From positions 1 to 61,282 of the forward strand of contig JAZDPV010000016.1 of assembly GCA_043797265.1 (NCBI GenBank): a stretch of 61,282 nucleotides of DNA, written 5' to 3'. The stretch is from an archaeon. GTDB lineage: Archaea; Nanobdellota; Nanobdellia; Pacearchaeales; GW2011-AR1. Under the pieces are notes generated by a model. That model was not told where the DNA came from, did no database searches, and saw only the letters and a list, made by a program, of their open reading frames with translations. The translations under genes and the position numbers were made by a program. Positions 2,607 through 52,327 of the stretch are shown piece by piece. Position 1 is the stretch's first letter; the number at the start of each line of letters is the position of its first letter.

Positions 2607-3242
2607 ATGAAAAACAAATGGGGTTATAAAACGGAAGGCAATCCCATCCACAGAATAAGGGCATATAATCATATTTATTTGATGAATAGAAAAAAATATC
2701 CTCTACAATGGGGAGCTTATGAAGTTCATCATATAGACGGCGATAGAGATAATAACCGAATGGATAATCTTGCGGTATTAACTCCAGAAGAACATGATAA
2801 AGCACATGACAAAATGGAATATGAACTTAGGATATTTTCTAAATATGGAACCTTACCAGAAGATTTGTTAAAACTTAAGGATATCTTTTCAAAAGAATAT
2901 AATTTGAGTTGGGAAAAAATAGAAGAGGAATTTCATGAATTGAGCAAAGAGTTTTTTTTAGAATTTTGTAAGGAGGATGAGAAATATAAATCTAATGAAA
3001 TAGTATATGGTGAACAAGTAGCTCTTAATACCCTTCAATACCAACTTAAATTAGAAGAAGGTAGAATCCCAATTGAAATCTTAAAAAAAACTTGGAAAGA
3101 ATTATTAGAAAATTACAAGGAAGAAAAAGAGGAAGCCAAAGAAGAAGCCGAAAGAAAAGTAAAACGAAAAGAATTAATGGATAAAATAAAAAAAGGTGTT
3201 AAGAAAGGATTTAAAACTATTTTTAAGAAGAGGAAAAAATGA
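2607..3242 (+). CDS. HNH endonuclease-domain protein with a charged coiled-coil tail
   Basis: HNH signature 'EVHHIDGDRDNNRMDNLAVLTPEEHDKAH'. The C-terminal half is E/K-rich. Confidence 0.7.
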   Translation: MKNKWGYKTEGNPIHRIRAYNHIYLMNRKKYPLQWGAYEVHHIDGDRDNNRMDNLAVLTPEEHDKAHDKMEYELRIFSKYGTLPEDLLKLKDIFSKEYNLSWEKIEEEFHELSKEFFLEFCKEDEKYKSNEIVYGEQVALNTLQYQLKLEEGRIPIEILKKTWKELLENYKEEKEEAKEEAERKVKRKELMDKIKKGVKKGFKTIFKKRKK

Positions 3243-4103: not shown

Positions 4104-4242
4104 CCCCTCATAGTTCAATGGTAGAACACGTGGCTGTAGAAGTGCGCTTGACGTTGTGCTGGGCACATAAGAATGATAGCGTTTTAGTCCGTATCGTGGC
4201 TGCAGAGCCCGCGATGTCCAAGTTCGATTCTTGGTGGGGGGA
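4104..4242 (+). tRNA. tRNA-Tyr (GUA) with a ~68-nt intron at the canonical 37/38 position
   Basis: Hand-folded cloverleaf:
- Acceptor stem CCCCTCA/TGGGGGG, giving C1-G72, with discriminator A73.
- D arm GTTC/GAAC.
- Anticodon stem CGTGG/CCGCG with loop CTGTAG|..|C.
- T arm CCAAG-TTCGATT-CTTGG.
The intron is ~4140..4207. Its 3' end (CTGCAG) pairs with the anticodon loop (CTGTAG) in a BHB-like way. Confidence 0.75.
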
Positions 4243-10566: not shown

Positions 10567-10601
10567 TAGGTGGTAGGAAGTAGGAGGTAGGCGGTGGGCG
10601 G
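10567..10601 (+). repeat. heptamer tandem array (TAGGNGG x5) starting 2 nt after the thermosome stop
   Basis: TAGGTGG TAGGAAG TAGGAGG TAGGCGG TGGGCGG. The TAGs at 10567, 10574 and 10581 fall in three different frames. Confidence 0.85.
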
Positions 10602-12937: not shown

Positions 12938-14125
12938 ATGAAAATTTTGAATGATTTTGATTTTAAGGGGAAGGCGGTTTTGGTTCGGAGTGATTTGAAT
13001 TGTGATGTTCGAGTTTCGCAGGTCGCAGGTCGCAGGTCGCAGGTCGCAAAGGTTATTGAGAGTGAGCGGGTTCGGGCGTCGGCGGAGACGATTAAAGAAT
13101 TGAAGCGGAAGGGGGCGAGGGTTGTCGTCGTTGCGCATCAAGGTCGGAAGGGGAAGGGTGATTTTGTTTCTTTAAAACAGCATTGTCGGTTGTTGAATAA
13201 GTATGTGAAGGTGAGGTTTGTCGAGGATGTTTGCGGGGCATTGGCTTTGAGTGAGATTGGGAAGTTGAAGGGTGGCGAAGTGATTTTGTTGGAGAATGTG
13301 AGGTTTGTCGCGGATGAAGATAAGCCAGAGAAGGGGAAACGGAATGAGTTGTATAAGTTGGTTGGGGTTTGTGATTATTTTGTTAGTGATGCGTTTTCGG
13401 TTTGTCATCGGGCGCAGGCGTCGGTGGTTTTGTTTCCTCGGTATCTTAAGAGTTTTACTGGACGACTTCTTGAGCGAGAGGTTGATGCTTTGAAGAAGAT
13501 TAAGTTGAAGAATTGTTTGTATGTTTTGGGCGGGGCGAAGCCAGCAGACAACATGAAATTGTTGTCTGCAGAAGTCAGAAGTCAGAAGTCAGAAGTCAGA
13601 AATAAAATATTGGCGTGTGGTTTGTTTGGGCAAATGTGCTTGATTGCGTCGGGAAAAAATCTTGGGGCACAGAATAAATATTTGAAAAGTGTCGTCGACG
13701 GTTACGATGGGATTTTGAAAGAGTTGAAGGGGCGATTGAAAAATGTTGAGATGCCGATTGATTTTGCGGTGAAGGTTGGTGGGCGACGGGTTGAGTTGGC
13801 GGTTGAAGATTTTCCGAGCGAGTATGAGATTTTTGATATTGGAAAAAAGACGCGGGAGAAATATGTTGGTGAAATTAAAAAGGCGAAGGCTGTTTTTATG
13901 AAGGGACCGGCCGGGGATTCTGCCGACGATAAATTTGCGAAAGGGACGGTTGCGTTGTTGCGGGCGGTTTCGAAGGTTGATTTTAGTTTGATTGGCGGTG
14001 GGCATTTGAATGATACGATAAAAAAATATCGGCTTAAAGGATTTGGGCATGTCAGTTTGTCGGGCGGGGCGTTGCTGAGTTATATTGCTGGAGAAAAACT
14101 TCCTGGAATTTTAGCCTTGAAATAA
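12938..14125 (+). CDS. pgk: phosphoglycerate kinase
   Basis: 'VLVRSDLN', 'VVVVAHQGR', 'LLENVRF', 'FVSDAFSVCHR' and 'LGGAKPADN'. Two heptamer-array-encoded inserts. Confidence 0.9.
   Translation: MKILNDFDFKGKAVLVRSDLNCDVRVSQVAGRRSQVAKVIESERVRASAETIKELKRKGARVVVVAHQGRKGKGDFVSLKQHCRLLNKYVKVRFVEDVCGALALSEIGKLKGGEVILLENVRFVADEDKPEKGKRNELYKLVGVCDYFVSDAFSVCHRAQASVVLFPRYLKSFTGRLLEREVDALKKIKLKNCLYVLGGAKPADNMKLLSAEVRSQKSEVRNKILACGLFGQMCLIASGKNLGAQNKYLKSVVDGYDGILKELKGRLKNVEMPIDFAVKVGGRRVELAVEDFPSEYEIFDIGKKTREKYVGEIKKAKAVFMKGPAGDSADDKFAKGTVALLRAVSKVDFSLIGGGHLNDTIKKYRLKGFGHVSLSGGALLSYIAGEKLPGILALK
13017..13048 (+). repeat. in-frame heptamer array (CGCAGGT x4.5) inside pgk
   Basis: Encodes VSQVAGRRSQVAK. 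Confidence 0.85.
13569..13603 (+). repeat. in-frame heptamer array (CAGAAGT x5) inside pgk
   Basis: Encodes AEVRSQKSEVRN. It shares an identical 31-nt block with the array in fba. Confidence 0.9.
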
Positions 14126-14151: not shown

Positions 14152-14261
14152 TGGGAAATTGGAGTAGGGAGGGAAAATTAGAGCGGGGAGGGAAAATTGG
14201 AGAGGGGAGGGAAAATTAGAGCGGGGAGGGGAAATTGGAGAGGGGAGGGGAAATTGGAGAG
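14152..14261 (+). repeat. 19-bp tandem repeat, ~5.8 copies (GGGAGGGAAAATTRGAGMG)
   Basis: Contiguous units at 14167, 14186, 14205, 14224 and 14243, plus a partial leading unit. Located between pgk and nagB. Confidence 0.9.
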
Positions 14262-19124: not shown

Positions 19125-19585
19125 ATTGCTCACGGATTGGCACGGATTAAAATTAAGATGAAACATGAATATATTACGGAGAAAATTATAAAAGTTTTTT
19201 ATGAAGTTTACAATGTTCTTGGGTATGGATTTTTGGAGAAGGTTTATGAAAATGCTTTGAAAATTGAGTTTGATAAAATTGGGTTGAGATATGTTAATCA
19301 GTATTCGATTAAAGTTTTTTATAAGGGAAAAATTGTAGGAGATTATGTTGCTGATTTTATTGTTGAGAATAAGGTTGTAGTTGAGGTGAAGGCGATTAAA
19401 AAATTTAGTAAGGTCGAAGAGTCACAGTTGTTGAATTATTTGACTGCTACAGATAAGGAAGTTGGGTTGTTGTTGAATTTTGGAGAAGAGGCGGAGTTTA
19501 AGAGGAAGGTTTATGATAATGAATTAAAGAAATATTTAGGTGAGGAATAATGGCTCACGGATTTCACGGATGGACACGGATTTTT
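19125..19585 (+). mobile_element. GxxExxY gene cassette bounded by CACGGAT-type repeats
   Basis: Left flank is ATTGCTCACGGATTGGCACGGATTAAAATT. Right flank is AATAATGGCTCACGGATTTCACGGATGGACACGGATTTTT. The interior is AT-rich. Confidence 0.5.
19158..19550 (+). CDS. GxxExxY family protein (PD-(D/E)XK-like)
   Basis: 'GYGFLEKVYENAL' (GxxExxY) and 'DFIVENKVVVEVKA'. Paralog of 22435..22836. Confidence 0.8.
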   Translation: MKHEYITEKIIKVFYEVYNVLGYGFLEKVYENALKIEFDKIGLRYVNQYSIKVFYKGKIVGDYVADFIVENKVVVEVKAIKKFSKVEESQLLNYLTATDKEVGLLLNFGEEAEFKRKVYDNELKKYLGEE

Positions 19586-20112: not shown

Positions 20113-20900
20113 AAGTTAAATTGAATAAGATTTTGCGGAAGGGGCGGGGAATGTTTTTGGCTTATGACCAGGGGATGGAGCATGGGCCGACGGATTTTAA
20201 TGACAGGAATGTTGACCCGGTTTATATTATTGATATTGCTCGACGGGGGAAATTTACGGCGTTGATTTTTCAGAAGGGTATTGCGGAGAAGTATAATTCT
20301 GAAATTAGGAAATCGGGGGTGCCATTGATTGTGAAGTTGAATGGGAAGACGAGTTTAGTTCGGGGCGAGCCGGTGTCGAGGCAGTTGTGTTCCGTCGGTG
20401 AGGCGGTGAAGTTGGGTGCGGTTGCGGTTGGTTATACGATTTATATTGGGAGCGAGTTTGAGAGTGAGATGATGGCGGAGTTCGAGAGGATTCAGGTTGA
20501 GGCGCATGAGAGAGGACTGCCGGTTGTTGTTTGGATTTATCCGCGTGGAAAATTTCTAAGAAATTTTCCACGAGAAGTCAGAAGTCAGAAGTCAGAAGTC
20601 AGAGATAAAAATAGGGAGTTGATGGCATATGCGGCGCGGGTTGGTTTGGAGATTGGTGCGGATATTGTTAAGTTGCAGTCGAACGGGGACAAGGAAGATT
20701 TGGCGTGGGCGGTTGAGTCGGCGGGGAAGTGCAAGATTGTCGTCGCTGGTGGAAAGAAGAAAAGCGAGGGGGAGTTGTTGGCTGAGGTTCGAGATGCGAT
20801 GAGTGTTGGTTGTGTCGGGGTCGCGGTTGGACGAAATGTTTGGCAGGCGGAGAAGCCGGTTGATGTTGCTGGTAAATTGAGGAAGATAATTTGGGGATGA
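20109..20900 (+). CDS. fba: class I fructose-bisphosphate aldolase, archaeal (DhnA/FbaB) type
   Basis: 'YDQGMEHGP', 'LIVKLNG', 'GADIVKL' and 'GVAVGRNVWQ'. Carries a heptamer-encoded REVRSQKSEVRD insert. Confidence 0.8.
   Translation: MKVKLNKILRKGRGMFLAYDQGMEHGPTDFNDRNVDPVYIIDIARRGKFTALIFQKGIAEKYNSEIRKSGVPLIVKLNGKTSLVRGEPVSRQLCSVGEAVKLGAVAVGYTIYIGSEFESEMMAEFERIQVEAHERGLPVVVWIYPRGKFLRNFPREVRSQKSEVRDKNRELMAYAARVGLEIGADIVKLQSNGDKEDLAWAVESAGKCKIVVAGGKKKSEGELLAEVRDAMSVGCVGVAVGRNVWQAEKPVDVAGKLRKIIWG
20572..20606 (+). repeat. in-frame heptamer array (CAGAAGT x5) inside fba
   Basis: GAGAAGT CAGAAGT x3 CAGAGAT. The 31-nt block AGAAGTCAGAAGTCAGAAGTCAGAAGTCAGA is identical to the one in pgk. Confidence 0.9.
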
Positions 20901-22345: not shown

Positions 22346-22875
22346 TTGCTCACGAATAACACGGATTGACACGAATTTTTTATTGGGGTAAATTATATGG
22401 AAGGTTTTTTATATAAGGAGTATTTGTTGGGCTGATGGAGTTTGAGGGGATTAGCGGGAAAGTTATTGAGATTTTTTATCGGGTTTATAATGGATTGGGT
22501 TATGGATTTTTGGAGAGTGTTTATGAGAGGGCGATGATGCACGAGTTTGTGAAGGAGGGGATTGAATTTGTTAATCAGTTTCCGATTAAGGTTTATTATG
22601 ACGGGGTTGTCGTCGGGAGTTTTGTTGCGGATTTTGTCGTTGAAGGGAATTTGGTGGTTGAGTTGAAAGCGGTGCGTGAGGTGTCTCAGGCAGATGAGAA
22701 TCAGTTGTTGAATTATTTGAGTTCGACAGACAAGGAAATAGGATTATTGTTGAACTTTGGTGAGAAACCGGAGATTAAACGAAAGGTTTATGATAATGTT
22801 CGGAAGAAAAATTATCGTGGTGGGCTCACGAAATAATTGCTCACGAATAAACACGGATTGACACGAATTTTTTTT
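22333..22875 (+). mobile_element. GxxExxY gene cassette flanked by ~50-bp direct repeats that include the tpiA stop region
   Basis: GCTCACGAAATAATTGCTCACGAATAACACGGATTGACACGAATTTTTT at 22333..22381 is repeated at 22824..22875 with one extra A. Both tpiA and the cassette ORF therefore end in LTK-stop. Confidence 0.7.
22435..22836 (+). CDS. GxxExxY family protein (PD-(D/E)XK-like)
   Basis: 'GYGFLESVYERAM' and 'DFVVEGNLVVELKA'. It has its own TATA (TTTTATATAA, about 20 nt upstream). Confidence 0.8.
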   Translation: MEFEGISGKVIEIFYRVYNGLGYGFLESVYERAMMHEFVKEGIEFVNQFPIKVYYDGVVVGSFVADFVVEGNLVVELKAVREVSQADENQLLNYLSSTDKEIGLLLNFGEKPEIKRKVYDNVRKKNYRGGLTK

Positions 22876-22993: not shown

Positions 22994-23341
22994 ATGGGTG
23001 AGTCGGGGGAAACAGAAGAGAATAAAACAGAAGAGAAAGTGAGTGTGTCTTTAAAAGGGGATACTATCTTGCTTCTTGATGAAGTAGCGAGAAAGAAAGT
23101 TGCTTTGGCTATGAAAAATGGTTCTTTTGATATAATTAATTTAATAAGAAGCAAGAGGGGCAGGGGAATTTCTTATGATCGTGAAGTAAATTATTTAGCA
23201 AGAATTTATCTTGCAGTAATGGATGAAACCGCTTTAAGTAGAGACATGATAGATAAGAATCCACAATTAAAAAAAGTTCTTGATAGATTAAATGAAATTA
23301 ATAATTTTTTTATTAAGTCTGAGCACAGGGATGAAGAATAA
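22994..23341 (+). CDS. hypothetical protein, possibly with an N-terminal ribbon-helix-helix
   Basis: 'VSVSLKGDTILLLDEVARKK' resembles the RHH beta-strand plus helix. Confidence 0.4.
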   Translation: MGESGETEENKTEEKVSVSLKGDTILLLDEVARKKVALAMKNGSFDIINLIRSKRGRGISYDREVNYLARIYLAVMDETALSRDMIDKNPQLKKVLDRLNEINNFFIKSEHRDEE

Positions 23342-23349
23342 TTCTATAT

Positions 23350-23385
23350 ACTAACATTACTAACATTACTAACATTACTAATATT
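23350..23385 (+). repeat. 9-mer tandem repeat (ACTAACATT x4)
   Basis: ACTAACATT x3 followed by ACTAATATT, directly after the stop at 23341. Confidence 0.85.
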
Positions 23386-26386: not shown

Positions 26387-26491
26387 ATGAAAGTGGTGAG
26401 GCGGCCGTGGGGAGCGAGAATTTTTGATTCTCGAGGTTTCAGGTTTCAGGTTTCAGGTTTCAGGTGTTTGTTTACTTGGAGGTTTCGATGA
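26387..26491 (+). other. relic N-terminus / upstream ORF of the cupin gene
   Basis: The ATG lies 20 nt after a TATA-like GTTTTTAAAG. It encodes MKVVRRPWG..., compared with MKKIVRPWG for the real gene. The TGA stop overlaps the real ATG (ATGA). Confidence 0.5.
26433..26467 (+). repeat. heptamer array (CAGGTTT x5)
   Basis: GAGGTTT CAGGTTT x3 CAGGTGT, preceded by the hairpin CGAGAAT-TTTTG-ATTCTCG (26415..26433). Confidence 0.9.
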
Positions 26492-26850
26492 AAAAAATTG
26501 TGCGTCCGTGGGGAAATTTTTTGGAGTTTGTTAAGAATAGGGAGTGCACGGTGAAGATTTTGAGGGTAAGGGCTTTTGGAGAACTGAGTTTGCAGAAGCA
26601 TAATCGTCGTCGGGAAATGTGGTATTTTTTGAGTGACGGATGGGCGAGTTTCGCTAGAGGTCAGAAGTCAGAAGTCAGAACTCAGAAATTTAAGAAGGGG
26701 GACGTTCTCGAGATACCTAAAGGAAGTTTACATCGGTTGTTTTCAAAAGGCGGGCGAGTTGAGGTTTTGGAAATTTCGTTTGGGACTTTTGATGAGAGGG
26801 ACGAGGTGAGGTTGGAGGATAAGTATGGGAGAGTAGGGGGTAGATTGTAG
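26488..26850 (+). CDS. cupin-domain protein (mannose-6-phosphate isomerase type II C-terminal-like)
   Basis: 'VRPWGNF', 'LSLQKHNRRREMWY' and 'IPKGSLHRL'. Contains an in-frame heptamer insert. Confidence 0.65.
   Translation: MKKIVRPWGNFLEFVKNRECTVKILRVRAFGELSLQKHNRRREMWYFLSDGWASFARGQKSEVRTQKFKKGDVLEIPKGSLHRLFSKGGRVEVLEISFGTFDERDEVRLEDKYGRVGGRL
26655..26689 (+). repeat. in-frame heptamer array (CAGAAGT-type x5) inside the cupin gene
   Basis: TAGAGGT CAGAAGT CAGAAGT CAGAACT CAGAAAT. Encodes GQKSEVRTQK. Confidence 0.9.
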
Positions 26851-26868
26851 ATGGTAGATAGTAGGATT
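26834..26868 (+). repeat. TAG-heptamer array spanning the cupin stop and the ROK start
   Basis: TAGGGGG TAGATTG TAGATGG TAGATAG TAGGATT. The third TAG is the cupin stop codon. Confidence 0.85.
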
Positions 26869-27672
26869 GTGGCGATTGATTTGGGTGGGACGAATTTGCG
26901 GATTGGTATTGTCAGGAACAGGAAGATTTTGAAATATTGGAAGGAGAAAACGCCGAAGACAGCGTCGGAGATTAAGAAAAGAATTTTTGAGTTGATTGAA
27001 AGTTTTATGTCGGATGATGTTAGGGGGATTGCTGTCGCGTCGCCGGGGCCGTTGAAAGATGGGACGATTCGGAATCCGCCGAACTTGCCGTTGAGGAATT
27101 ATAATTTGAAGAAGGCGTTGGAGGATAGGTTTGGGGTTCCGGCGGTTGTGAAGAATGACGCGGATTGTGTTGCGTTTGCGGAGTTGGAGCTCGGGCACAA
27201 GAAGAAGAATTTTATTTTGTTGACGCTGGGGACGGGGATTGGCGGCGGTGTGATTATCGACGGGAAACTTTATCGTGGTTGTGGTTATGCCGGGGAGCTT
27301 GGTTATATTATTCTTGATGATGGTAAGTATTTTGAGAATTTGGCGGCGTCGAAGAGGTTGCAGGTTGTGACGAGGAAAATTTTTGGCGAGGTGAAGTTGT
27401 TTCATGAGCTGATGAAGATGAGGGATGTGCGGGCGAAAAGAATTTTGGGTGAGTTCATGGAGTATTATGGGCAGGGGATAGCGTCGCTGATTCATTGTTT
27501 TGACCCGGAGATTGTTGTTTTGGCTGGCGGAGTTTCCGAATGCGGGGAAGGGTTTTTGAGAATGGTTCGGAAGAGTGTTTTGAAATATAACAAGTTGCCG
27601 AAGAGGACGCCGATTGTGTGGACTAAGTTGAAGCATCCGGGAGTGCTTGGTGCTTCGCTTTATTTTGAATGA
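26851..27672 (+). CDS. ROK-family sugar kinase (glucokinase-like)
   Basis: 'VAIDLGGTNLRIG', 'ENDADCVAFAE'-like segment and 'GYAGELGY'. Confidence 0.8.
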   Translation: MVDSRIVAIDLGGTNLRIGIVRNRKILKYWKEKTPKTASEIKKRIFELIESFMSDDVRGIAVASPGPLKDGTIRNPPNLPLRNYNLKKALEDRFGVPAVVKNDADCVAFAELELGHKKKNFILLTLGTGIGGGVIIDGKLYRGCGYAGELGYIILDDGKYFENLAASKRLQVVTRKIFGEVKLFHELMKMRDVRAKRILGEFMEYYGQGIASLIHCFDPEIVVLAGGVSECGEGFLRMVRKSVLKYNKLPKRTPIVWTKLKHPGVLGASLYFE

Positions 27673-27688
27673 GCGCCAAGTAGGGGGT

Positions 27689-27784
27689 AATCGCTTCGCG
27701 ATTGGGGATATTTTTGCTTTGCAAAAATGGGGGTACAAAAAATCGAAGATTTTTTGTGGTGATATGAAAATCTTTGATTTTCAT
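27689..27784 (+). other. four consecutive perfect hairpins with 3-nt loops
   Basis: AATCGC-TTC-GCGATT; TTTTTGC-TTT-GCAAAAA; CAAAAAATC-GAA-GATTTTTTG; ATGAAAATC-TTT-GATTTTCAT. Confidence 0.85.
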
Positions 27785-27797
27785 GGGCGTTGGAGGA

Positions 27798-28166
27798 ATG
27801 ATGTGGAATTATAAAAATTTGGAAGTTTGGAAGAGGGCACATGAGTTGATGAAGAATGTGTATAAAGTTATTGATGCGTTTCCTGAGAAGGAGAGGTATA
27901 ATGCGGTTTTCCAGATTAGGAAAGCGGTTTTTAGTGTTCCGAGCAATATTGTTGAGGGTTCGGGAAAGGATACTAATAAAGATTTTGCTCATTATTTGGA
28001 TAATGCGATTGGGAGTTTGAAGGAAGTTGAGTATCAGATTTTTGCGTCATGGGAGTTGGGTTATGTTGGCGAAGAGAAATATAAAGAGTTAAAAAAGGAG
28101 ATGACTATATTTGGGATGAAATTGAGGGCTTATCGGAGGTTTATTGGAGGAGGTGAGAAAAAATGA
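27798..28166 (+). CDS. four-helix-bundle protein (TIGR02436 family, formerly '23S rRNA intervening sequence protein')
   Basis: 'YKNLEVWKRAHELMKNVYKV', 'RKAVFSVPSNIVEGSG' and 'AIGSLKEVEYQI'. GGAGGA lies before the ATG. Stop is ATGA-overlapped with the next gene. Confidence 0.8.
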   Translation: MMWNYKNLEVWKRAHELMKNVYKVIDAFPEKERYNAVFQIRKAVFSVPSNIVEGSGKDTNKDFAHYLDNAIGSLKEVEYQIFASWELGYVGEEKYKELKKEMTIFGMKLRAYRRFIGGGEKK

Positions 28167-33064: not shown

Positions 33065-34240
33065 ATGAAGTGCGAGTTGCTTGCGCCGGTTGGGGATTTT
33101 CGTAGTTTGAGGGCGGCTGTTGATGCGGGGGCGGATGCGGTTTATTTTGGGATTAAGGGTTTTAATATGAGGGATGCGGCGAGGAATTTTGAGTTGAAGG
33201 ATTTGAAAAAGATTCGGAAGATTTGCGGGGGCGTCAAGATGTATTTGACTTTGAATGTTGTGGTTTACGACGGAGAATTGGCGAGAGTTGAGAAGATTGT
33301 TAAGGGTGTTAAAAATTATATTGATGCGATTATCTGCTGGGATTTTGGCGTGATTGAACTTTGCCGGAAGCATAAAGTTCCTTTTCATGTTTCTACTCAG
33401 GCGTCGGTTTCGAATTTGTCGGCGGCGAGGTTTTATAAAAATCTGGGGGCGAAGAGAGTTGTTTTGGCGAGGGAGTTGAGTTTGAAACAGATTAAGAAGA
33501 TTGCGAAGATTATTGATGTGGAGTGTTTTTGTCACGGGGCGATGTGTGTCGCGGTTTCGGGGCGGTGTTTCATGTCGCAGTTTAGTTATGGGTTGTCGGC
33601 GAATCGCGGGCAGTGCGCGCAGCTTTGTCGTCGGAGTTGGGACTTGATTGATGATGACGGGAAGAGATTAAAGTTGGAAAATTCGCGAGTGATGTCGGCG
33701 AAGGATTTGTGCGCGTTGCCATTTATTGAGGAGATGAAGAGGGCGGGGGTTAAAGCGTTCAAGATTGAGGGGCGGAATAGAAGTCCTGAATATGTTAGTG
33801 TTGTCGTCGGTGAATATCGGAAAGCGTTGGATGCCAGATGCAAGATGTCAGATGTTAGAATTCAGGAAGCGGTCGAGAGGTTGAAAAGAGTTTATAATCG
33901 CGGGTTTAGTTCGGGGTTTTATTTTGGCGTGCCGACGGCGGACGATTTTTCATGGAGTGAGAACGGGGAGCAGAGCGAGAGGAAAGAGTTTGTCGGGAAG
34001 GTGTATAAATTTTGGCCGAAGGTTGGCGCGTGTTCGGTTAAGATGAGTGCGGGGCGATTGAAAGTTGGGGATGAAGTTTATTTGATTGGCGACGATGTCG
34101 GGGCCGAGCGGGTTGTTGTCAAGAGTATTGAGCTCGACGGGAAAGGGATTGGCGTCGCGAAGAAGGGGCAGGATGTTGGCGTTGATTTTGGAGTTAAGGT
34201 TGGGAGAGGTTGTGAGGTTTATTTGATTTTGAGAAAATGA
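33065..34240 (+). CDS. peptidase U32 family protein
   Basis: 'ELLAPVGDFRSLRAAVDAGADAVYFG', 'ARELS' and 'FCHGAMCVAVSGRC'. Confidence 0.8.
   Translation: MKCELLAPVGDFRSLRAAVDAGADAVYFGIKGFNMRDAARNFELKDLKKIRKICGGVKMYLTLNVVVYDGELARVEKIVKGVKNYIDAIICWDFGVIELCRKHKVPFHVSTQASVSNLSAARFYKNLGAKRVVLARELSLKQIKKIAKIIDVECFCHGAMCVAVSGRCFMSQFSYGLSANRGQCAQLCRRSWDLIDDDGKRLKLENSRVMSAKDLCALPFIEEMKRAGVKAFKIEGRNRSPEYVSVVVGEYRKALDARCKMSDVRIQEAVERLKRVYNRGFSSGFYFGVPTADDFSWSENGEQSERKEFVGKVYKFWPKVGACSVKMSAGRLKVGDEVYLIGDDVGAERVVVKSIELDGKGIGVAKKGQDVGVDFGVKVGRGCEVYLILRK
33837..33878 (+). repeat. degenerate in-frame heptamer array (NCAGATG-type x6) inside the U32 gene
   Basis: TTGGATG CCAGATG CAAGATG TCAGATG TTAGAAT TCAGGAA. 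Encodes LDARCKMSDVRIQE. Confidence 0.65.
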
Positions 34241-35975: not shown

Positions 35976-36449
35976 ATGGTGAAGAAACTGAAGGTTGGGT
36001 TTTTTTCGTTTACGTGTTGTGAGGGGTGCGTGGTTTCGTTTTTGGAAATTTTGAATGAGAAGTTTTTTGAATGGCGGGACAAGGTTGATATTTTGTATTT
36101 GCGGGCGCTGAAAAAGGACGGGGAGATTGCGCCGATGGATGTTGCGTTTGTCGAGGGTGCGGTGTCGACGGAGAGCGAGGTCCGGAAGTTGAAGTTGATT
36201 CGAAAGAACGCGGGGAAGTTGGTCGCGATTGGGAGTGGGGCGATTAATGGATGGCCGTCGAATTTTAGGAATAATTTTAAGGGCGAGAAAAAAAAGAGGG
36301 TGGATGTTTTAGTGAAGAAGATGGGGCAGATTAAGAAAGTTTTGCCGTTGAAGGATGTCGTGAAAGTTGATGATGAGGTGCCGGGTTGCCCGATTGACGA
36401 AAAGATTTTTATCGAGAAGATGGAGAGGTTGATGGGGGGTAGGGGGTAG
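35976..36449 (+). CDS. [NiFe]-hydrogenase small subunit, short group-3 (delta-like) form
   Basis: 'FFSFTCCEGC' and 'VPGCPID'. Only 157 aa, with only proximal-cluster-type Cys residues visible. Confidence 0.75.
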   Translation: MVKKLKVGFFSFTCCEGCVVSFLEILNEKFFEWRDKVDILYLRALKKDGEIAPMDVAFVEGAVSTESEVRKLKLIRKNAGKLVAIGSGAINGWPSNFRNNFKGEKKKRVDVLVKKMGQIKKVLPLKDVVKVDDEVPGCPIDEKIFIEKMERLMGGRG

Positions 36450-36488
36450 GGGGTAGGGGGTAGATGGTAGGGGGTAGGAGGTAGGGAG
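36440..36488 (+). repeat. TAG-heptamer array x7 (TAGGGGG-type) containing the small-subunit stop codon
   Basis: TAGs at 36440, 36447 (the stop codon), 36454, 36461, 36468, 36475 and 36482. Confidence 0.9.
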
Positions 36489-36498: not shown

Positions 36499-37266
36499 TG
36501 GAGGAGAAAATGCATAAGTTTGATTTGGATTTGAAGAATAGTAAAATATTTAAATCTATGAATATTAATTGTATTAGCGCTTTTCGGAGCGTGAGTATAT
36601 CCCCCGGTGATCTTTTGGGGTTGCCGGATGATTTTATTTTTTTTGGAGTGTGTTTTTAATGGAAGATGTTGTGGTTTTTGTTGATGATGGTTTTTTTGGA
36701 TTGGTAAAAAAACATTTTCAAAAAGAAACTAAGAAGAGGGGTTGTTTTCTTCAGACTTTTAGAAATATTTGTAAAAATGAAAATTTAAATTTGAAACATT
36801 TATTTTTTTATACTGCGCCTCCTTATCAAAATAAAATTTCTGATAATAAAGAAGATTTTTTAAAAAAGAAATATGATCTTTTGGTAAAGATGTTGAAAAA
36901 TAAGAAGTGGATTACGGTTCGAGAGGGAAGATGCCAGCGATTGAAAATAGGTGATGAATTTAAATATTTTCAAAAGGGTGTTGATTCTTGGATAGTTGCT
37001 GATATGTGTTTAATGAAAGAAGATTTCCCGGAAGTTAAGAAAATAATTTTGATTTCTTCTGATTCAGATTTTGCTCCGATAATTAAATATCTTAAGGAAA
37101 GAAATAAGTTTGAGGTGATATTGTATACTTATTTTGATAAGAAGAGAAATAGTTGTTTTTCTCTAAGTAATTATCTTTTGCAAGCTTGTTCTAAGTGGGT
37201 TAGAATGACCAGCTCTTTTTTTAATGGAGGAGAAAATGCATAAGTTTGATTTGGATTTGAAGAATA
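36499..37266 (+). mobile_element. NYN-gene cassette with perfect 42-bp flanking direct repeats
   Basis: TGGAGGAGAAAATGCATAAGTTTGATTTGGATTTGAAGAATA occurs at 36499..36540 and 37225..37266. The repeat holds the RBS and first 10 codons of the hydrogenase large subunit. Confidence 0.8.
36659..37243 (+). CDS. NYN-domain (LabA/DUF88-like) predicted RNase
   Basis: 'VVVFVDDGFF', 'KGVDSWIVADM' and 'ILISSDSDFAPII'. The ATG is TAATG-overlapped with a 49-aa leader ORF (36510..36659) that begins at the stranded hydrogenase start. Confidence 0.75.
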   Translation: MEDVVVFVDDGFFGLVKKHFQKETKKRGCFLQTFRNICKNENLNLKHLFFYTAPPYQNKISDNKEDFLKKKYDLLVKMLKNKKWITVREGRCQRLKIGDEFKYFQKGVDSWIVADMCLMKEDFPEVKKIILISSDSDFAPIIKYLKERNKFEVILYTYFDKKRNSCFSLSNYLLQACSKWVRMTSSFFNGGENA

Positions 37267-39290: not shown

Positions 39291-40019
39291 TTAATTGTAT
39301 CGTTGGAATATTAATAAACCTTTCTCATCTCTTATGTAAATTGTGTCGCCGTCGTCATTCCAAATATGGGAAGTTGTTTTTGTGAGTTGCGATTTCGGAT
39401 TTAGGATTTCGTTGTAGATATGGTTGGCGTCGTCTTTGAATGTGATATTTAGGATTTTGTCGCAGGTGTTTTGGAGGATTAGAATTTCTGGTTCGTCGGT
39501 TTGGAATTTTATGATTTCGATGCAGTTGGCGTCGGGTGATTTTTGCCAGAGAGCTTTTTGGTTTAGGCGCGCGAATTCTTCGGCCTGTTTTAGTTTTTCG
39601 TAGTAGTTGTCTTTTTCGTAATAGTATAGCGTCGCCAAACCTTGTTTCAGGATTTGCTCGTTGATGTTTACTCTCACAGATTTAAGTTTTTTATAGGTTG
39701 GGGCAGGCTCTTTGTCGTCGAGGAAAATGTATGCGAGGGTTCGGCCGTATTTGTCGGTGCCATAGATTTTGGTTTTGACTGATTTGTTTTGGATTTGTTG
39801 AGATAGGAAGTTAGTTGCTTCGGTGTAGAATGGCTGGGATTTTTCGGGAGTGTTGATGCCGAGGAGACGGATTTGGATGTTGGTTGATGTTTCGATTGTG
39901 TCGCCGTCGATAACTCTTGTGATTTGGAATGTTTGAGTTTGGGTCGGGTCGGTGATGTGGTAGTAGAAAATTGCGGAGGTGAAAAATAAAATTAGGATTA
40001 TTAATGATTTTTTGTTCAT
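39291..40019 (-). CDS. secreted staphylococcal-nuclease (SNase) homolog with a C-terminal lamin-tail-like domain
   Basis: N-terminal TM/signal. 'VIDGDTIE...IRLLGINTPE...DKYGRTLAYIF'. The C-terminal beta-rich region 'IEIIKFQTDEPEILILQN...NDDGDTIYIRD' is LTD-like. Confidence 0.7.
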   Translation of the reverse strand: MNKKSLIILILFFTSAIFYYHITDPTQTQTFQITRVIDGDTIETSTNIQIRLLGINTPEKSQPFYTEATNFLSQQIQNKSVKTKIYGTDKYGRTLAYIFLDDKEPAPTYKKLKSVRVNINEQILKQGLATLYYYEKDNYYEKLKQAEEFARLNQKALWQKSPDANCIEIIKFQTDEPEILILQNTCDKILNITFKDDANHIYNEILNPKSQLTKTTSHIWNDDGDTIYIRDEKGLLIFQRYN

Positions 40020-40068
40020 ATTGATTTAAGTTGGAAAGGTTTAAAAGTGTAATTTTTGTTTGTGTCGT

Positions 40069-40377
40069 ATGACAAAGGTCCGGATAAAATTGCAGAGCGT
40101 CGAGATTGACAAGTTGAATGAGGTCATCGAGCGGATTAGCACGATTGCGAGCGGGGCGGGGATTCCGATTTCAGGACCGATACCGTTGCCGACGAAAAGG
40201 TTGAGGATTACGACGCGGAAGTCGCCGTGCGGGAATGGGACCGCGACGTTTGACAGGTATGAGATGAGGATTCATAAAAGGATTATTGATTTGCCGGCGA
40301 ACGACAAGATTTTGCATAATATCATGAGGATTAATATTCCGAGGACGGTCAAGATAAAGATTGAGATGGTTGATTGA
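40069..40377 (+). CDS. rps10: 30S ribosomal protein uS10
   Basis: 'RIKLQS...ISGPIPLPTKRLRITTRKSPCGNGTATFDRYEMRIHKRIIDL'. Confidence 0.9.
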   Translation: MTKVRIKLQSVEIDKLNEVIERISTIASGAGIPISGPIPLPTKRLRITTRKSPCGNGTATFDRYEMRIHKRIIDLPANDKILHNIMRINIPRTVKIKIEMVD

Positions 40378-40394
40378 AAATCGGAGATTTTCAG

Positions 40395-40436
40395 TAGTTG
40401 GTAGTAATTAGTTTTTAGTTAGTAGTGTTAGGTAAT
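40395..40436 (+). repeat. TAG-heptamer array x5-6 (TAGTNNN) downstream of rps10
   Basis: TAGTTGG TAGTAAT TAGTTTT TAGTTAG TAGTGTT AGGTAAT. Confidence 0.8.
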
Positions 40437-40519
40437 TTTTTAAAGTTGGGTTGATGATTGATAATAAGCCCGTGTCGCATAAAGTAACATCGAAGATGTT
40501 TCATGGATGCAACTCGGAT

Positions 40520-40939: not shown

Positions 40940-41048
40940 TTTAAGTTTGAATTTAGGACGCGGATGTCGGGGCTGTAGAGATTAACTTTGTCGCCTTCGT
41001 CAAGATAGAATTCTATGAATTTTTGTGGTTGTTTTTTTTCAGGATTTT
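40936..41048 (-). pseudogene. displaced, frameshifted 3'-end remnant of the XPD-like helicase gene
   Basis: 41 nt (40955..40995) are identical to 41706..41746. 40996..41048 is about 90% identical to 41796..41848. Relative to the intact gene it has a 51-nt gap and a 1-nt deletion. Confidence 0.75.
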
Positions 41049-41848
41049 GATGCTGAGAAATTTGTTAGGTCTTTGATAAATTCTGTATTTATTATTTGTG
41101 TGGATGAGGCTACTTTTTTTAGATGGTATGAAATTGATTTTTTGTTTCCAATTGCTACGTATATTATTTTTTTGTTGAGCCTGTTGATTATTGATGAGAT
41201 AACGCTTGAGAAGTCGCCGTCGTTTGATATCAGGAAAGCTTTGTCGTAATTATTGTTTATGGCGTCGAAGATTAAATCTTGTGCTATGTTTATATCTGTT
41301 GCTTTTTCTATGTAGAATGTTTTGTTGTCTTTTTTGTGTTTTTCTAATCTGCCGAATATTATTTTTAGTTTTTCTATTTTTCTTATTTTTTCGAAGAAGC
41401 GTTGTTGTTCTGCATACATTTTTGGGTTTGATTCTCCCACTGGAGAGATGTAATAATTAATTTTGACTAACTTGTATTTTTTTGCGAGTTTTTTGCAGAA
41501 TTTTTCTATGTCGATTTTTTGGTTAAAAGTTTTCTTAATGGAAAAATAAAAATTATTTCCGTCGATATATATTATCACTTTTTTCTTATCAGAATTCATA
41601 TTATAAAAAACATGGGGTTAGTTTCCTATCCCCATGGTGTTAATTAATGTTGATAATTATTTAGAGTTATTAAATCTTTCTGTTGTTGCTATTTGATTTG
41701 CGTTGAGGACGCGGATGTCGGGGCTGTAGAGATTAACTTTGTCGCCCTTGAATCGGATGCCTCTTGCGATTTTTTGATAGAGGTCTCGTCGGGCTTTGTC
41801 GAGATAGAATTCCATGAATTTTTGTGGTTGTTCTTTTTTTAGGATTTT
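40955..41848 (-). mobile_element. NYN-gene cassette flanked by duplicated helicase 3'-end sequence
   Basis: The intact helicase C-terminus (41657..41848) and the remnant (40936..41048) bracket a hairpin plus the NYN gene. Confidence 0.7.
41039..41599 (-). CDS. NYN-domain (LabA/DUF88-like) predicted RNase
   Basis: 'VIIYIDGNNFY', 'KATDINIAQDL' and 'FLISNDGDFSSVI'. Its last codons run into the duplicated helicase sequence. Confidence 0.75.
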   Translation of the reverse strand: MNSDKKKVIIYIDGNNFYFSIKKTFNQKIDIEKFCKKLAKKYKLVKINYYISPVGESNPKMYAEQQRFFEKIRKIEKLKIIFGRLEKHKKDNKTFYIEKATDINIAQDLIFDAINNNYDKAFLISNDGDFSSVISSIINRLNKKIIYVAIGNKKSISYHLKKVASSTQIINTEFIKDLTNFSASKS

Positions 41849-43630
41849 CCAGAAGAGGCCCTGGATGTTTGGGTAGGGAAATTTTGTGATGACGATTGAG
41901 TTGCATTTGTCGCCGGGGAAGTCGACGCCTCGCGCGCATTTTGTCGTGAATAAAATATCTGTTTCGCCCGATGTGAATTTGTCGACGGCGGTGTTGCCTT
42001 TTGATTGGAGCTCGCTGAGTTTTTCCTGGGTGATTAGGTTTTCGAGTTTTAGGGTTTCGTTTTCTGAATTTGTCGGGAGGTCGCTGAATGCGGAGATGTG
42101 GACGAGGGTTGGCGGTTCTGCTTTTGCCATGCACATGTCGAGGATTTTCAGGTATTGGTTTCGCGTGATTGTTCCGTCTTTGAAATTTTGGAAGGCGCAA
42201 TTTTTTTCGAGGCCGGTTCGTTGTTTGTTGATTGTGCCGGGATTTTGTGTTTCAGCCTCGATGGTTTTGAAATCTTTTAGCCCGAAGATGTCTTTGAGAA
42301 CTTGCTCGGAGTGGAGCGTGCCGGACATCATGACAAGGACGTTGTTTTGCTCGATTAGTTCTTTTAGTTTTTGGGCGAGATTGATTGAGACGATGGTGAC
42401 GAAAGTAGTTGGTAGGTGGTAGGGGGTAGAAGGTGGTTGATTGAATAATTTGTTTTGAACAGAATCTTTGTTGGTTTTTTCTATCGAGATGTAGGTTTCG
42501 TCGAGGAGGTTCTTGAAAGATTGGGCGATTTCGACGAGCGTGTTGTAGTAGTTTAGTTCTTCGTCTTCGGCGAGGTTCGGGTTTTCGATTGCGGTCTTGA
42601 TTATTTTTATAATTGGAGATTGTTTTATTTTTTGGATTTCGATTTCTTCGGAGTAAATGGCGTCGTTGATTTCGCGGATTAATTTTTTTATAATTGTCTT
42701 GTCTGTTTGTTTTTGCGGGGCGAGGTTTGAGAGCGCGGTGTGGAGCCGGTTGAGATTTATTTTGCGCTCGTTGGCGAAGGAGTCGAGGAATTCGTCGCAT
42801 TCGTCGACGATGTCGAGGTCGGTTTTTGGTTTTCGTCCGATCATTGTTTCGATTTGATATTTTGCCGAGTTGAAGATTAGGACGTCGGCGTTGGCGTAGG
42901 CTTCGCATTGGTCGTAGTAGGCGCAACCTTTTTTTCGCTGGAAGAGTGCGAATTCTTTTCCGCAAGTTGCTTCGTATTTTATTTTTTTGAAGTCGGTGAG
43001 GCCTTTTGGTTTTATGTCGGCGGGGATGAGCGGGGACCAGTAGGGGCAGGCGGGGGCGATGTTCATTCTTCTGATGTCCGACGCTGTTTTGAAATCTTCC
43101 GGACTGACCAGTGGATTTTTGTTGATGTATCCCAAAAGTTTTGCCGTGTTTTTTTCGCGGATTTCGATTGTGCAAGGGAGGTCTGGCGAATCTGCAGTTG
43201 GTAGTTGGCAGTTGGTAGTTGGTAATTCTTTTTCTGCGAATGGACATCGGAAATTATTTCGGCCTTTTATGACGGCGATGTCGAGGGGTTTTTTGTTTTG
43301 CTTGAGGATGAATTTGTTTTTAGTGTAATCTTTTTCGTATTGTTCCTGGAGGGATTTGATTGGGACGATGATTGATGTTTTTTTGAAATGGCGCGCGAGG
43401 TTGAGGGCGATTGCTGATTTGCCGGTGCCACAGACGCCCTTGATGAAAATTAATTTGTTGCCGGCGTTGATTGCGTCGAGGATTTCCTTAACGACGTCGG
43501 CCTGGGTTTTGTTATTTGAGAAAAGCAGGGGCTTGAGTTCTTCTCCTTCTGTGTCGAAGGGACCGAAGAACTTGCTGTTAGATTGTCGCTTGTCGCTTGT
43601 CGCATCTGTTCGTTTATATAATGACCACAT
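41657..43630 (-). CDS. XPD/Rad3-like (DinG family) superfamily 2 DNA helicase
   Basis: Walker A 'GVCGTGKS', 'VDECDEF', FeS-type Cys residues ('NFRCPF','LPCT','ACPYW') and C-terminal 'ARGVDFPGD'. Confidence 0.8.
   Translation of the reverse strand: MWSLYKRTDATSDKRQSNSKFFGPFDTEGEELKPLLFSNNKTQADVVKEILDAINAGNKLIFIKGVCGTGKSAIALNLARHFKKTSIIVPIKSLQEQYEKDYTKNKFILKQNKKPLDIAVIKGRNNFRCPFAEKELPTTNCQLPTADSPDLPCTIEIREKNTAKLLGYINKNPLVSPEDFKTASDIRRMNIAPACPYWSPLIPADIKPKGLTDFKKIKYEATCGKEFALFQRKKGCAYYDQCEAYANADVLIFNSAKYQIETMIGRKPKTDLDIVDECDEFLDSFANERKINLNRLHTALSNLAPQKQTDKTIIKKLIREINDAIYSEEIEIQKIKQSPIIKIIKTAIENPNLAEDEELNYYNTLVEIAQSFKNLLDETYISIEKTNKDSVQNKLFNQPPSTPYHLPTTFVTIVSINLAQKLKELIEQNNVLVMMSGTLHSEQVLKDIFGLKDFKTIEAETQNPGTINKQRTGLEKNCAFQNFKDGTITRNQYLKILDMCMAKAEPPTLVHISAFSDLPTNSENETLKLENLITQEKLSELQSKGNTAVDKFTSGETDILFTTKCARGVDFPGDKCNSIVITKFPYPNIQGLFWKILKKEQPQKFMEFYLDKARRDLYQKIARGIRFKGDKVNLYSPDIRVLNANQIATTERFNNSK
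42406..42436 (+). repeat. heptamer array (TAGNNGG x4), antisense to and in frame within the helicase gene
   Basis: TAGTTGG TAGGTGG TAGGGGG TAGAAGG on the + strand. Encodes PPSTPYHLPTT on the - strand. Confidence 0.85.
43195..43225 (+). repeat. heptamer array (YAGTTGG x4), antisense to and in frame within the helicase gene
   Basis: CAGTTGG TAGTTGG CAGTTGG TAGTTGG. Encodes LPTTNCQLPTA on the - strand. Confidence 0.9.
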
Positions 43631-43913: not shown

Positions 43914-43948
43914 GAGGTATTAGGTGTCGGGTGTCAGGTGATAGAAAT
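43914..43948 (+). repeat. degenerate heptamer array (NAGGTGT-type x5)
   Basis: GAGGTAT TAGGTGT CGGGTGT CAGGTGA TAGAAAT, in the leader region of the 44032 gene. Confidence 0.65.
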
Positions 43949-43990: not shown

Positions 43991-44015
43991 TCAAATTTTC
44001 TGCTCGAAAATTTGA
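43991..44015 (+). promoter_or_regulatory. perfect 10-bp hairpin immediately 5' of the RBS of the 44032 gene
   Basis: TCAAATTTTC-TGCTC-GAAAATTTGA, then AAGGAGG (44016..44022), then the ATG at 44032. Confidence 0.6.
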
Positions 44016-46626: not shown

Positions 46627-46865
46627 CTGAAGATTCTAATAATTTTGAAGAGAAATGGAAGCAGTTAGTTGTTGAAAGAGTTAATGCTGGGATGTCAGCT
46701 AATTTAAAACTTTCAATAGGAATGGGGAAAAGTTTTAACAAGGAGGAAGTTTTGGAGCACGTTAGAAAAGGTGATGAGATTGGACAGCAAGTAATTAATA
46801 TGCATAAAAATTTTATGCAGGCTCAGGTATCTGGACAATTTACTAATGCTCTTAATAGTGTTTAA
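46623..46865 (+). CDS. small hypothetical protein (80 aa)
   Basis: ATGA-coupled upstream and TAATG-coupled downstream. Confidence 0.45.
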   Translation: MTEDSNNFEEKWKQLVVERVNAGMSANLKLSIGMGKSFNKEEVLEHVRKGDEIGQQVINMHKNFMQAQVSGQFTNALNSV

Positions 46866-47512
46866 TGAAATCTGCTATTTTGATGACATTGCCCCAGTGG
46901 GATGATGTGACAGAATATTTGCATGCATTTTCTCAGAGTATTATAAATACTGCGAAAGATGCTGGTGTTCCAATTAATGTTCTCGAAAGAGAAAGTGCGA
47001 CGAGAAATAATTTTGAATTTGAACTTAGAGATAATCATCGGTTAATTGTTTTTAACGGGCATGGTTCTGACGATATAATTGCGGGGCATAAGAATGAAGT
47101 GATTATAAAAAATGGGGAGAATGAGAATTTATTGAAAGAGAAAATAACTTACGCCCGTTCTTGTTTCTCTGCGAAAGGGATTGGTGTTTCTTCAATGAAA
47201 AATAGCGACGCAGGGTGTTTTATTGGATATACTTTACCTTTCATGTTTTATAATGATATTACTTGGTCCAGCAATCCTTTAAAGGATTCTATCGCGAGAA
47301 TCTTTTTTACGACGACAAATGTGATTCCGAACGATATAATAAGAGGCAAATCTTGTATTGAGGCTAATGAAAATTCTAAAAGAGATATGTTGAAAGCGAT
47401 AAAGAAAGCTTTGTTAAGGAAAGATAATATGGACTCACAATCAATAGTGGAAGCTCTTTGGAATAATTATTCTTTTCAGGTGGTTGTTGGAAATAAAAAT
47501 GTTAAGTTTTAG
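46865..47512 (+). CDS. hypothetical protein with a possible clan-CD (caspase/gingipain-like) His-Cys dyad
   Basis: 'LIVFNGHGS' and, 34 residues later, 'ITYARSCFS'. Each follows a hydrophobic strand, as in clan CD peptidases. Motif-level evidence only. Confidence 0.3.
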   Translation: MKSAILMTLPQWDDVTEYLHAFSQSIINTAKDAGVPINVLERESATRNNFEFELRDNHRLIVFNGHGSDDIIAGHKNEVIIKNGENENLLKEKITYARSCFSAKGIGVSSMKNSDAGCFIGYTLPFMFYNDITWSSNPLKDSIARIFFTTTNVIPNDIIRGKSCIEANENSKRDMLKAIKKALLRKDNMDSQSIVEALWNNYSFQVVVGNKNVKF

Positions 47513-47544
47513 CTGTTAGTTATTAGTCGTTAGTTTTTAGGGAA
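47510..47544 (+). repeat. TAG-heptamer array x5 starting with the stop codon of the 215-aa gene
   Basis: TAGCTGT TAGTTAT TAGTCGT TAGTTTT TAGGGAA. Confidence 0.85.
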
Positions 47545-52235: not shown

Positions 52236-52327
52236 GCATAGGGTAAGGAGGTCCGTCAATCCTATTAACCGTATCATCGCAAGCGAGCACGGGGTTCGTC
52301 AGGTCCTATTCCCCTATGGGAATAGGA
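52236..52327 (+). other. candidate structured RNA or terminator region
   Basis: Perfect 9-bp hairpin CCTATTCCC-CTAT-GGGAATAGG (52305..52326). TCCTATT occurs twice. Inner hairpin TCGC-AA-GCGA. CATAGGG and CCCTATG are complementary. Confidence 0.3.

Follow-up and report, generated by a model that had tools for sequence, protein, structure and literature searches.

The window analysed here (the whole stretch of DNA under study, 61,282 nt) is a 61-kb piece of the chromosome of a Pacearchaeota-like DPANN archaeon, and it carries short head-to-tail arrays of 7-nt units within genes, at gene ends and between genes, some of which begin directly at the foot of a hairpin on one DNA strand. The gene content is archaeal and chromosomal, with a thermosome, type I GAPDH, thioredoxin reductase, phosphoglycerate kinase (PGK), class I aldolase, TIM, a group 3 NiFe hydrogenase, an XPD/DinG-like helicase and tRNAs, one of them presumably with an intron. 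The named best relatives of the window PGK are 'Candidatus Pacearchaeota archaeon'. A phage or plasmid origin was rejected on the grounds of these archaeal chromosomal genes and of finding no match in the phage collection. For comparison, 62 related helicase loci were fetched; individual comparison loci are cited below by their L numbers. Array statistics refer to 56 non-redundant arrays from high-skew loci; several of these arrays are orthologous and do not represent independent events.

Tandem Repeats Finder detected 19 period-7 arrays in the window. These arrays are real and lie far above chance: seven period-7 loci have perfect runs of at least three copies, compared with a single period-9 locus and none for periods 5, 6, 8 and 10-15, while we estimate that ~0.001 such runs would be expected from base composition. 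The arrays discussed below, together with the helicase gene that holds three of them, are as follows.

10567-10601, + strand: (TAGGNGG)x5, its first base 1 nt past the thermosome stop codon.
13016-13048, + strand: (TCGCAGG)x4.7, perfect, in frame in PGK (site 1), encoding SQVAGRRSQVA.
13569-13601, + strand: (CAGAAGT)x4.7, perfect, in frame in PGK (site 4), a 10-amino-acid (aa) insertion.
20573-20603, + strand: (AGAAGTC)x4.4, perfect, in frame in the aldolase gene.
26434-26465, + strand: (AGGTTTC)x4.6, perfect, 5' of the probable ATG of the cupin gene at 26488.
26656-26687, + strand: (CAGAAGT-type)x4.6, within the cupin/mannose-6-P-isomerase-like gene, where it is in frame and adds 6 aa compared with L124.
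26832-26870, + strand: TAG-containing array (GTAGATT and variants) covering the cupin stop codon and the start of a ROK kinase gene.
33830-33854, + strand: (CAGATGC-type)x3.6, in frame in a U32-family gene.
36435-36486, + strand: (TAGGGGG)x7.4, providing the stop codon of the hydrogenase small-subunit gene (35976-36449).
39391-39409, + strand: weak array, GATTTCG GATTTAG GATTT, within a minus-strand SNase-like gene.
40375-40437, + strand: hairpin plus degenerate TAG-rich array, 3' of the open reading frame (ORF) at 40060-40377.
41657-43630, - strand: XPD/DinG-like (Rad3-family) helicase gene (Pfam Helicase_C_2 and ResIII; NCBIfam YoaA/DinG/rad3).
42405-42429, + strand: GTAGTTG/GTAGGTG/GTAGGGG, 3.6 copies, antisense in the helicase (site 3), encoding PPSTPYHLPTT.
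43194-43224, + strand: (G[CT]AGTTG)x4.4, perfect as a 14-mer, antisense in the helicase (site 2), encoding LPTTNCQLPTA.
43583-43603, + strand: (TTGTCGC)x3, perfect, at the helicase N-terminus (site 1), with no YAG.
43922-43940, + strand: short intergenic array, AGGTGTC x2.7.
47500-47540, + strand: (TGTTAGT)x5.9, degenerate and TAG-rich, covering the stop codon of the ORF at 46865-47512.

Identical units occur at unlinked loci of one genome: the window has three arrays of CAGAAGT, L121 has three of CAGGTCG and L157 three of TAGAAAT. Array units can also swap sites between genomes. CAGAAGT was considered as a special lineage-specific unit and dismissed as such, being widespread in bacteria beside many other units. 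Repeats of other kinds are also present. The sole strong period-9 array, (TACTAACAT)x4.1 at 23349-23385, lies directly after the ORF at 22994-23341, and a 19-nt tandem unit, AAATTGGAGAGGGGAGGGA, is repeated 5.6 times with a 38-nt super-period at 14156-14261, between PGK and a glucosamine-6-P-isomerase-like gene. Intergenic TTAGGGG/TTAGGTG arrays in L128 (3466-3513 in coordinates of the G-rich strand) resemble eukaryotic telomere repeats and could form G-quadruplexes.

Most arrays are genic. Stop-to-stop ORFs of at least 80 codons enclose 48 of the 56, a few of these being spurious antisense ORFs over gene-end arrays, and in-frame insertion was confirmed in PGK, aldolase, cupin, the U32-family gene and the helicase. 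Relative to array-free orthologues the net insertions amount to 10 aa at each of PGK sites 1 and 4, 13 aa in aldolase and 6 aa in cupin, that is, lengths (18, 30, 30 and 39 nt) that are multiples of 3 and not of 7; the 13-aa aldolase insertion, measured against L124, consists of a hairpin arm plus the array. A lone +7 step would throw an essential gene out of frame, so the tracts can only arise, and change, in bursts or through conversion. Units containing TAG are found only at or after the stop codons of + strand genes, between genes or antisense in the helicase, and units containing CAG lie inside + strand ORFs, a placement that selection against in-frame stops predicts. A local seed origin of the units is plausible for aldolase, where L124 carries GAAGTC at the site, and was unsupported for cupin and PGK site 4.

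How these tracts evolve is best seen at PGK site 1. The array there is exactly 33 nt long and in the same register in six genomes, with units TCGCAGG, TCGCGGG, TCGGAAG or TCGGAAA after an older first unit (TCGCGAG), and the PGK proteins of the genomes sharing it are only 63-73% identical to that of the window. The same length and register with different units demonstrate concerted evolution at a fixed length. Phase-variable contingency repeats do not match this picture: the arrays lie in housekeeping genes, and this one is held at exactly 33 nt, in frame, in six diverged genomes. PGK can accommodate several arrays at once, as in L121 (10001-11335), where a 444-aa PGK (P0013) with five separate heptamer arrays and a 22-aa non-repeat insertion keeps every residue that is invariant among 16 aligned PGK sequences.

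Arrays that are in frame and encode hydrophilic low-complexity peptides where homologues also have indels, with a conserved length, could be driven by selection on the protein, the flexible heptad peptides (QKSEVRS, QVAGRRS, QQPTTNN) being useful as loop insertions in the manner of Borg repeats. We find this hardly credible as the driver. The 7-nt period does not divide by 3, arrays of this type are also intergenic, and the peptide at one site changes freely between genomes while the DNA register stays. Protein-level selection also leaves the hairpins and their polarity, described below, unexplained.

The DNA in which the arrays lie has an extreme composition that follows the strand. Overall GC is ~0.40, and GC skew ranges from +0.2 to +0.56 in every 2-kb bin of the window, including bins under minus-strand genes. 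Third codon positions of + strand genes contain G.38, T.42, A.11 and C.09; those of minus-strand genes, read on the + strand, contain G.405, T.40, A.10 and C.09. Third-position G+T is thus ~80% on the + strand for either gene direction, so the bias is tied to the DNA strand and not to transcription, and its direction matches that expected from C-to-T and A-to-G change on the + strand. Leucine codons illustrate the effect, with TTG used in + strand genes and CTC/CTA in minus-strand genes, in the window and in L121, L123, L124 and L187-L191, a set in which GC skew goes from 0.44 to as much as 0.65 in relatives. Syntenic relatives have the same bias (skew 0.3-0.65), among them equally skewed relatives (L124, L137-L139 and L151) that carry no arrays; skew alone does not produce arrays. 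Within the literature that could be searched, no report turned up of such skew in DPANN archaea, nor of archaeal heptamer repeats. To our knowledge, the strand bias of these genomes is among the strongest in cellular DNA. It may point to an unusual mode of replication in DPANN archaea, or to their lacking repair of deamination.

A sequence-only reading of the window had listed 14 arrays and proposed that all read YAG+NNNN on the + strand whatever the gene orientation, from which it argued for an origin tied to the DNA strand and not to transcription. All 14 arrays exist and contain YAG on the + strand, and no window array has the reverse (CTR, C-rich) orientation; for the listed arrays, the orientation claim holds. 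As a general rule it does not, because four period-7 arrays lack YAG (at 32777, 43583, 45863 and 48804) and because relatives carry other units in the helicase. One of the four, the perfect (TTGTCGC)x3 at 43583-43603, sits in the same helicase gene as two of the listed arrays and was missing from that list. With letters permuted within each unit as the null, YAG is enriched in + strand genes, gene ends and intergenic regions (present in 15 of the 21 unit families, where 5.2 were expected; P<1e-5), where CTR occurs in no unit family against 2.7 expected. Under the same null there is no YAG enrichment in minus-strand genes (3/19 against 1.7 expected). At PGK site 1, YAG is lineage-specific, the window's TCGCAGG being a one-base variant of the TCGCGGG, TCGGAAG and TCGGAAA found in five relatives. 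A coding-sense 'CAR' motif shared by both gene orientations was significant against the sequence background and was dropped when it disappeared on conditioning for unit composition.

The helicase gene was central to the earlier argument. Its arrays at 42405-42429 (GTAGTTG GTAGGTG GTAGGGG GTAG) and 43194-43224 (GCAGTTG GTAGTTG GCAGTTG GTAGTTG GTA) are indeed antisense and encode the peptides ascribed to them, ..PPSTPYHLPTT.. and ..LPTTNCQLPTA.. respectively. Alignment with 10 relatives shows that the three helicase arrays are 5-10 aa insertions at three hot spots, with a net insertion of 10 aa at site 2. At these three sites the arrays of relatives, read on the G-rich strand, have the units GTCGCTG, TTCGCTG, GTCGTTG, GTTGTTG, GGGATTT or GGAGTCT. 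L128 and L129 carry at site 2 a GGTTGTT/GTTGTTG array with a hairpin at its 5' foot, and the TAGTTGG of the window is one base off their TTGTTGG at this site. Judged from these units, the YAG in the two antisense helicase arrays is probably an accident; as YAG is not carried over to the minus-strand genes of relatives, the two arrays are weak evidence for a strand-fixed motif.

The G/T-rich orientation of the arrays is mostly a reflection of the extreme strand bias, since any heptamer duplicated on a strand with ~80% G+T at third positions looks G/T-rich. This is the core of the simplest alternative, in which the arrays are ordinary replication-slippage microsatellites, their one-sidedness comes from G/T skew plus coding constraints and the association with hairpins is incidental. 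The equal third-position composition for both gene orientations, which makes local duplications look G/T-rich, and the lack of YAG enrichment in minus-strand genes both fit plain slippage, as does the fact that such arrays are common: (CAGAAGT)n alone is present in >120 species genomes, and in many prokaryotes no short tandem repeat is commoner than the heptamer array (Mori et al., 2019, NAR, PMC6344855). We nevertheless consider plain slippage unlikely. The arrays are more one-sided than the bulk of the sequence, with G>C in 50 of 56 and G<C in one of 56, compared with 64% and 17% of background heptamers. Stepwise +7 growth would frameshift essential genes and the net insertions are not multiples of 7, relatives with equal skew have no arrays, and identical units recur at unlinked loci. 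Plain slippage would also have to treat as incidental a hairpin association that is confined to one edge of the arrays.

Hairpins were scanned on the G-rich strand as perfect stems of at least 6 bp ending exactly 0 nt from an array edge. Such a hairpin ends at the 5' edge in 7 of the 56 arrays, against 0.3 expected, and none (0/56) was found at the 3' edge. With one mismatch allowed there are nine at the 5' edge, and three at the 3' edge, close to the 2.1 expected by chance. Plain slippage has to account for seven to nine hairpins on one side against none on the other in perfect-stem scans. In a second set, five further PGK loci, two of nine arrays had a hairpin at the 5' edge and none had one at the 3' edge. 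The L128 and L129 helicase is informative with respect to transcription: along the G-rich strand, the hairpin of this minus-strand gene is again on the 5' side of the array, and so on its 3' side in gene sense. This one-sided polarity supports a strand-tied process at the DNA level and is evidence on which the sequence-only reading did not draw. The conclusion of that reading, an origin tied to the DNA strand and not to transcription, is supported on these other grounds. Its argument from YAG orientation is not, as the G/T-rich orientation mostly mirrors the skew and YAG does not extend to the minus-strand genes of relatives. The hairpins at window arrays are the following.

13544-13569, + strand: 10-bp perfect hairpin, GCAGACAACA-TGAAAT-TGTTGTCTGC, over PGK codons (A)DNMKLLS(A), ending at the array.
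20544-20572, + strand: 13-bp perfect hairpin, CGTGGAAAATTTC-TAA-GAAATTTTCCACG, within the class I aldolase gene.
26415-26433, + strand: 7-bp perfect hairpin, CGAGAAT-TTTTG-ATTCTCG, ending at the array.
40375-40393, + strand: 8-bp hairpin, TGAAAATC-GGA-GATTTTCA, with the degenerate TAG-rich array 40393-40437 directly after it.

Most hairpin-anchored arrays start with AG at the hairpin foot, and their end phase is variable. Perfect hairpins of at least 8 bp are over-represented threefold in the window as a whole (15, compared with 4.7 in shuffles). Bacterial (CAGAAGT)n loci showed no hairpin adjacency, with 5 of 754 array sides against ~3 expected. Perfect 8-10 bp hairpins, some of them clustered, also lie in intergenic positions just 5' of + strand genes (27680-27790, 43991-44015, 46801-46819 and 52304-52327) and may be regulatory or terminator elements. 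The sequence 'GTAGGGGGTA' recurs at 26834, 27680, 36440 and 42418. GAAAWTTTC, examined as a candidate repeated palindromic element, was not enriched (six matches against 3.8 expected).

Inside genes the hairpins are made from local codons. The arms are perfected by rare C-containing codons (CTT, CGG, GCC, CTG, GAC, AAC) that array-free orthologues do not have. The arm at PGK site 4 of the window contains GAC AAC where other genomes have GAT AAT. At site 3 of L123 the sequence reads GCC GAA GTG AAA GCA CTT CGG C, compared with ..GAA GTT ... GCT TTG AAG in array-free genomes, and the replacement of GCT TTG AAG by GCA CTT CGG yields a perfect 9-bp stem. Inverted repeats have been perfected likewise at L121 sites 4 and 5, window site 4 and L191 site 1, with no hairpins in the array-free orthologues. 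In the aldolase hairpin the right arm itself belongs to the insertion and copies the conserved PRGK codons in inverted orientation. We had considered that the right arm is always the derived one and dropped this, as the right arm is derived in three to four cases and the left arm in two to three.

Dependence on hairpins and a fixed strand polarity would also be expected of a dedicated strand-specific enzyme or mobile system, for example an HUH enzyme like those of IS200/IS605 or REP/RAYT, or a telomerase-like reverse transcriptase or primase. The recurrence of units at unlinked loci within a genome, the AG start at the hairpin foot in most anchored arrays and insertions in bursts of ~30 nt all fit such an enzyme. 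We hold it to be very improbable because the hairpins all differ and are built from local conserved codons, and so are not element ends, because one genome contains many different units, and because orthologous arrays are vertically inherited in register. Among the ~40 window proteins scanned there was no transposase, HUH enzyme or reverse transcriptase, including no Y1/HUH transposase (TnpA/RAYT) gene.

One observation could mean that the hairpins are maintained. The hairpin at PGK site 4 is kept in the window and L189 by a compensatory pair change (AAC/TTG to AAT/TTA), one step of which goes against the mutational bias, and different genomes form different perfect hairpins at the same site. 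These two findings, the array length fixed at 33 nt in six genomes, the strand-fixed polarity and a keto-rich skew similar to that of the mitochondrial H strand suggest that the hairpin and array modules might be selected cis elements, either priming or initiation signals on a displaced single strand or elements acting at the RNA level. Structure-dependent priming is familiar from plasmid single-strand origins and mitochondrial OriL. However, no motif is conserved among hairpins or units, most arrays have no hairpin, and close relatives (L124, and L125 at site 2) have no arrays at the same sites. Quasipalindrome conversion can imitate compensatory change without function, and the position inside essential ORFs looks tolerated and not designed. 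On balance, selected cis elements are an improbable explanation.

The account we favour, and hold with equal measures of belief and doubt, is hairpin-anchored template switching or slippage on a strand left single-stranded, followed by selective filtering. The + strand, depleted in C and A, would spend long periods single-stranded during replication and lose C and A by deamination. The arrays would be scars of replication-linked template switching or slippage anchored at hairpins on that strand. A single event would create or perfect a short inverted repeat and lay down, directly 3' of the hairpin on the G-rich strand and in one burst, ~18-39 nt of a reiterated 7-nt unit, for which existing arrays elsewhere in the genome may be reused as templates. 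Repeated slippage or conversion within the array would afterwards keep it homogeneous. Selection would then decide what persists. Inside genes only net insertions in multiples of 3 would remain, and units with a stop in any frame would be kept out of + strand ORFs, which would leave TAG units at gene ends, in intergenic positions or antisense in minus-strand genes and CAG units inside + strand ORFs. In + strand genes, T-poor units encoding hydrophilic peptides would survive; in minus-strand genes, T-rich units read as CAA- and ACC-rich codons. The data show directly that the arrays exist and exceed other periods, that composition follows the strand, that hairpins adjoin arrays with a fixed polarity and have atypical codons in their arms, that insertions are in frame and that arrays evolve in concert at constant length. 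The link to replication and the assignment of events to the template or the nascent strand are deduced from the skew, and synthesis in a burst and ectopic copying between arrays are likewise deductions.

Several points weigh against template switching at hairpins as the origin of the arrays. None of the fetched loci contains an origin or terminus, or a skew switch flanked by arrays on either side, and polarity is tied to replication direction solely through the skew. Minus-strand genes provide just one independent hairpin-anchored case, and ~85% of arrays have no adjoining perfect hairpin. With the derived arm being the right one in three to four cases and the left one in two to three, synthesis cannot be assigned a clear direction. 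As for the compensatory change that separates the window from L189, it is equally compatible with selection preserving a functional hairpin. Neither the 7-nt period nor the excess of YAG in + strand and intergenic contexts, after conditioning on composition, is explained by the model, and a length of 33 nt fixed over deep divergence is odd for a slippage-prone tract.

A bolder possibility, to which we give a small chance, is that the chromosome of this clade is replicated strongly asymmetrically, in a manner resembling strand displacement, with the G/T-rich strand displaced, and that the modules of hairpin and heptamers mark fixed sites on it at which the complementary strand is started or its fragments are joined. 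In that case the arrays would serve as signals for starting or joining, or else be recurrent scars of it. Vertebrate mitochondrial DNA is replicated in such an asymmetric, strand-displacement-type fashion, and its H strand has a similar keto-rich skew. If true, asymmetric replication would tie the unexplained heptamer repeats of prokaryotes to a concrete replication step. Even apart from this, the clade offers a mechanistic handle on tandem heptamers, in which starts at hairpin feet on one strand, in-frame bursts in essential genes and concerted evolution at fixed length come together. If the link between hairpins, strand and arrays holds, a mutational process would be writing new peptide loops into core enzymes, and the origin of heptamer repeats would become testable.

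Two further features of the window lie outside the arrays. A 139-nt tRNA at 4104-4242 was detected by Rfam and missed by ARAGORN, and is presumably an archaeal tRNA with an intron. Small genes that are possibly of selfish or defence type are scattered among the glycolysis and hydrogenase genes, namely two PDDEXK_3 nucleases, a 23S-rRNA-IVP/Avd-like gene, two NYN genes, an HNH gene and a Fic gene. They are located at

19137-19550, 22435-22836, 27774-28166, 36650-37243, 41039-41599, 2607-3242 and 4326-5252.

The same syntenic block of relatives holds NYN, HEPN/NTase and PDDEXK_3 genes at varying positions.

It is useful to set these arrays beside known systems. Classical quasipalindrome template-switch mutagenesis, the Ripley model, has hot spots in E. 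coli thyA and rpsL and depends on the replication strand. Imperfect inverted repeats are perfected there by several simultaneous templated changes, and the rare-codon arms seen here fit that pattern. The classical events add no tandem repeat, whereas the perfected arms described here are followed by a heptamer tract. The elements of the REP/RAYT and IS200/IS605 types resemble the present arrays in a single-stranded DNA hairpin and in an orientation that, for the arrays, would be tied to the replication strand; unlike them, the hairpins here are local coding sequence and neither form a conserved family nor mark the ends of an element. In Rickettsia, palindromic elements of 100-150 bp move as copies of a single sequence family. 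They are similar in placing palindromic DNA in frame in conserved protein genes, where it is tolerated in surface loops, and differ in that each hairpin described here is unique and only the 7-nt tandem tract is repeated.

Borg tandem repeats, also on archaeal DNA, are comparable as perfect, fast-homogenised tandem repeats that are both genic and intergenic and whose in-frame copies give low-complexity peptide insertions. Borg replichores are also one-sided in composition. The genic Borg units are reportedly divisible by 3, while the unit here is 7 nt and the frame is kept by the total insertion length only. We know of no hairpin anchor reported for Borg repeats.

The closest relatives of these arrays are the heptamer repeats of prokaryotes, of which the cyanobacterial STRR sequences and the Xanthomonas heptamers are named bacterial systems. 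The likeness lies in 7-nt head-to-tail units, short arrays, many dispersed loci and a limited unit repertoire, and extends to the exact CAGAAGT array, which is present in >120 species genomes. CAGAAGT arrays also abound in sediment communities, as seen in public sequencing runs. The 8-kb bacterial loci with (CAGAAGT)n (L001-L120) contain 377 period-7 arrays with many units, often strung together or paired with a downstream inverted copy into long array-array hairpins (for example L080, L093 and L113). According to Mori et al. (2019, NAR, PMC6344855), heptamers outnumber all other tandem repeats of intergenic regions, and there is 'no clear clue' as to their function. The arrays described here differ in being archaeal and mostly genic and in frame, not predominantly intergenic, and in their anchoring at the foot of a hairpin, fixed strand polarity and extreme keto skew, whereas the bacterial (CAGAAGT)n arrays lack hairpin adjacency. 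They are a variant of the known heptamer repeats.

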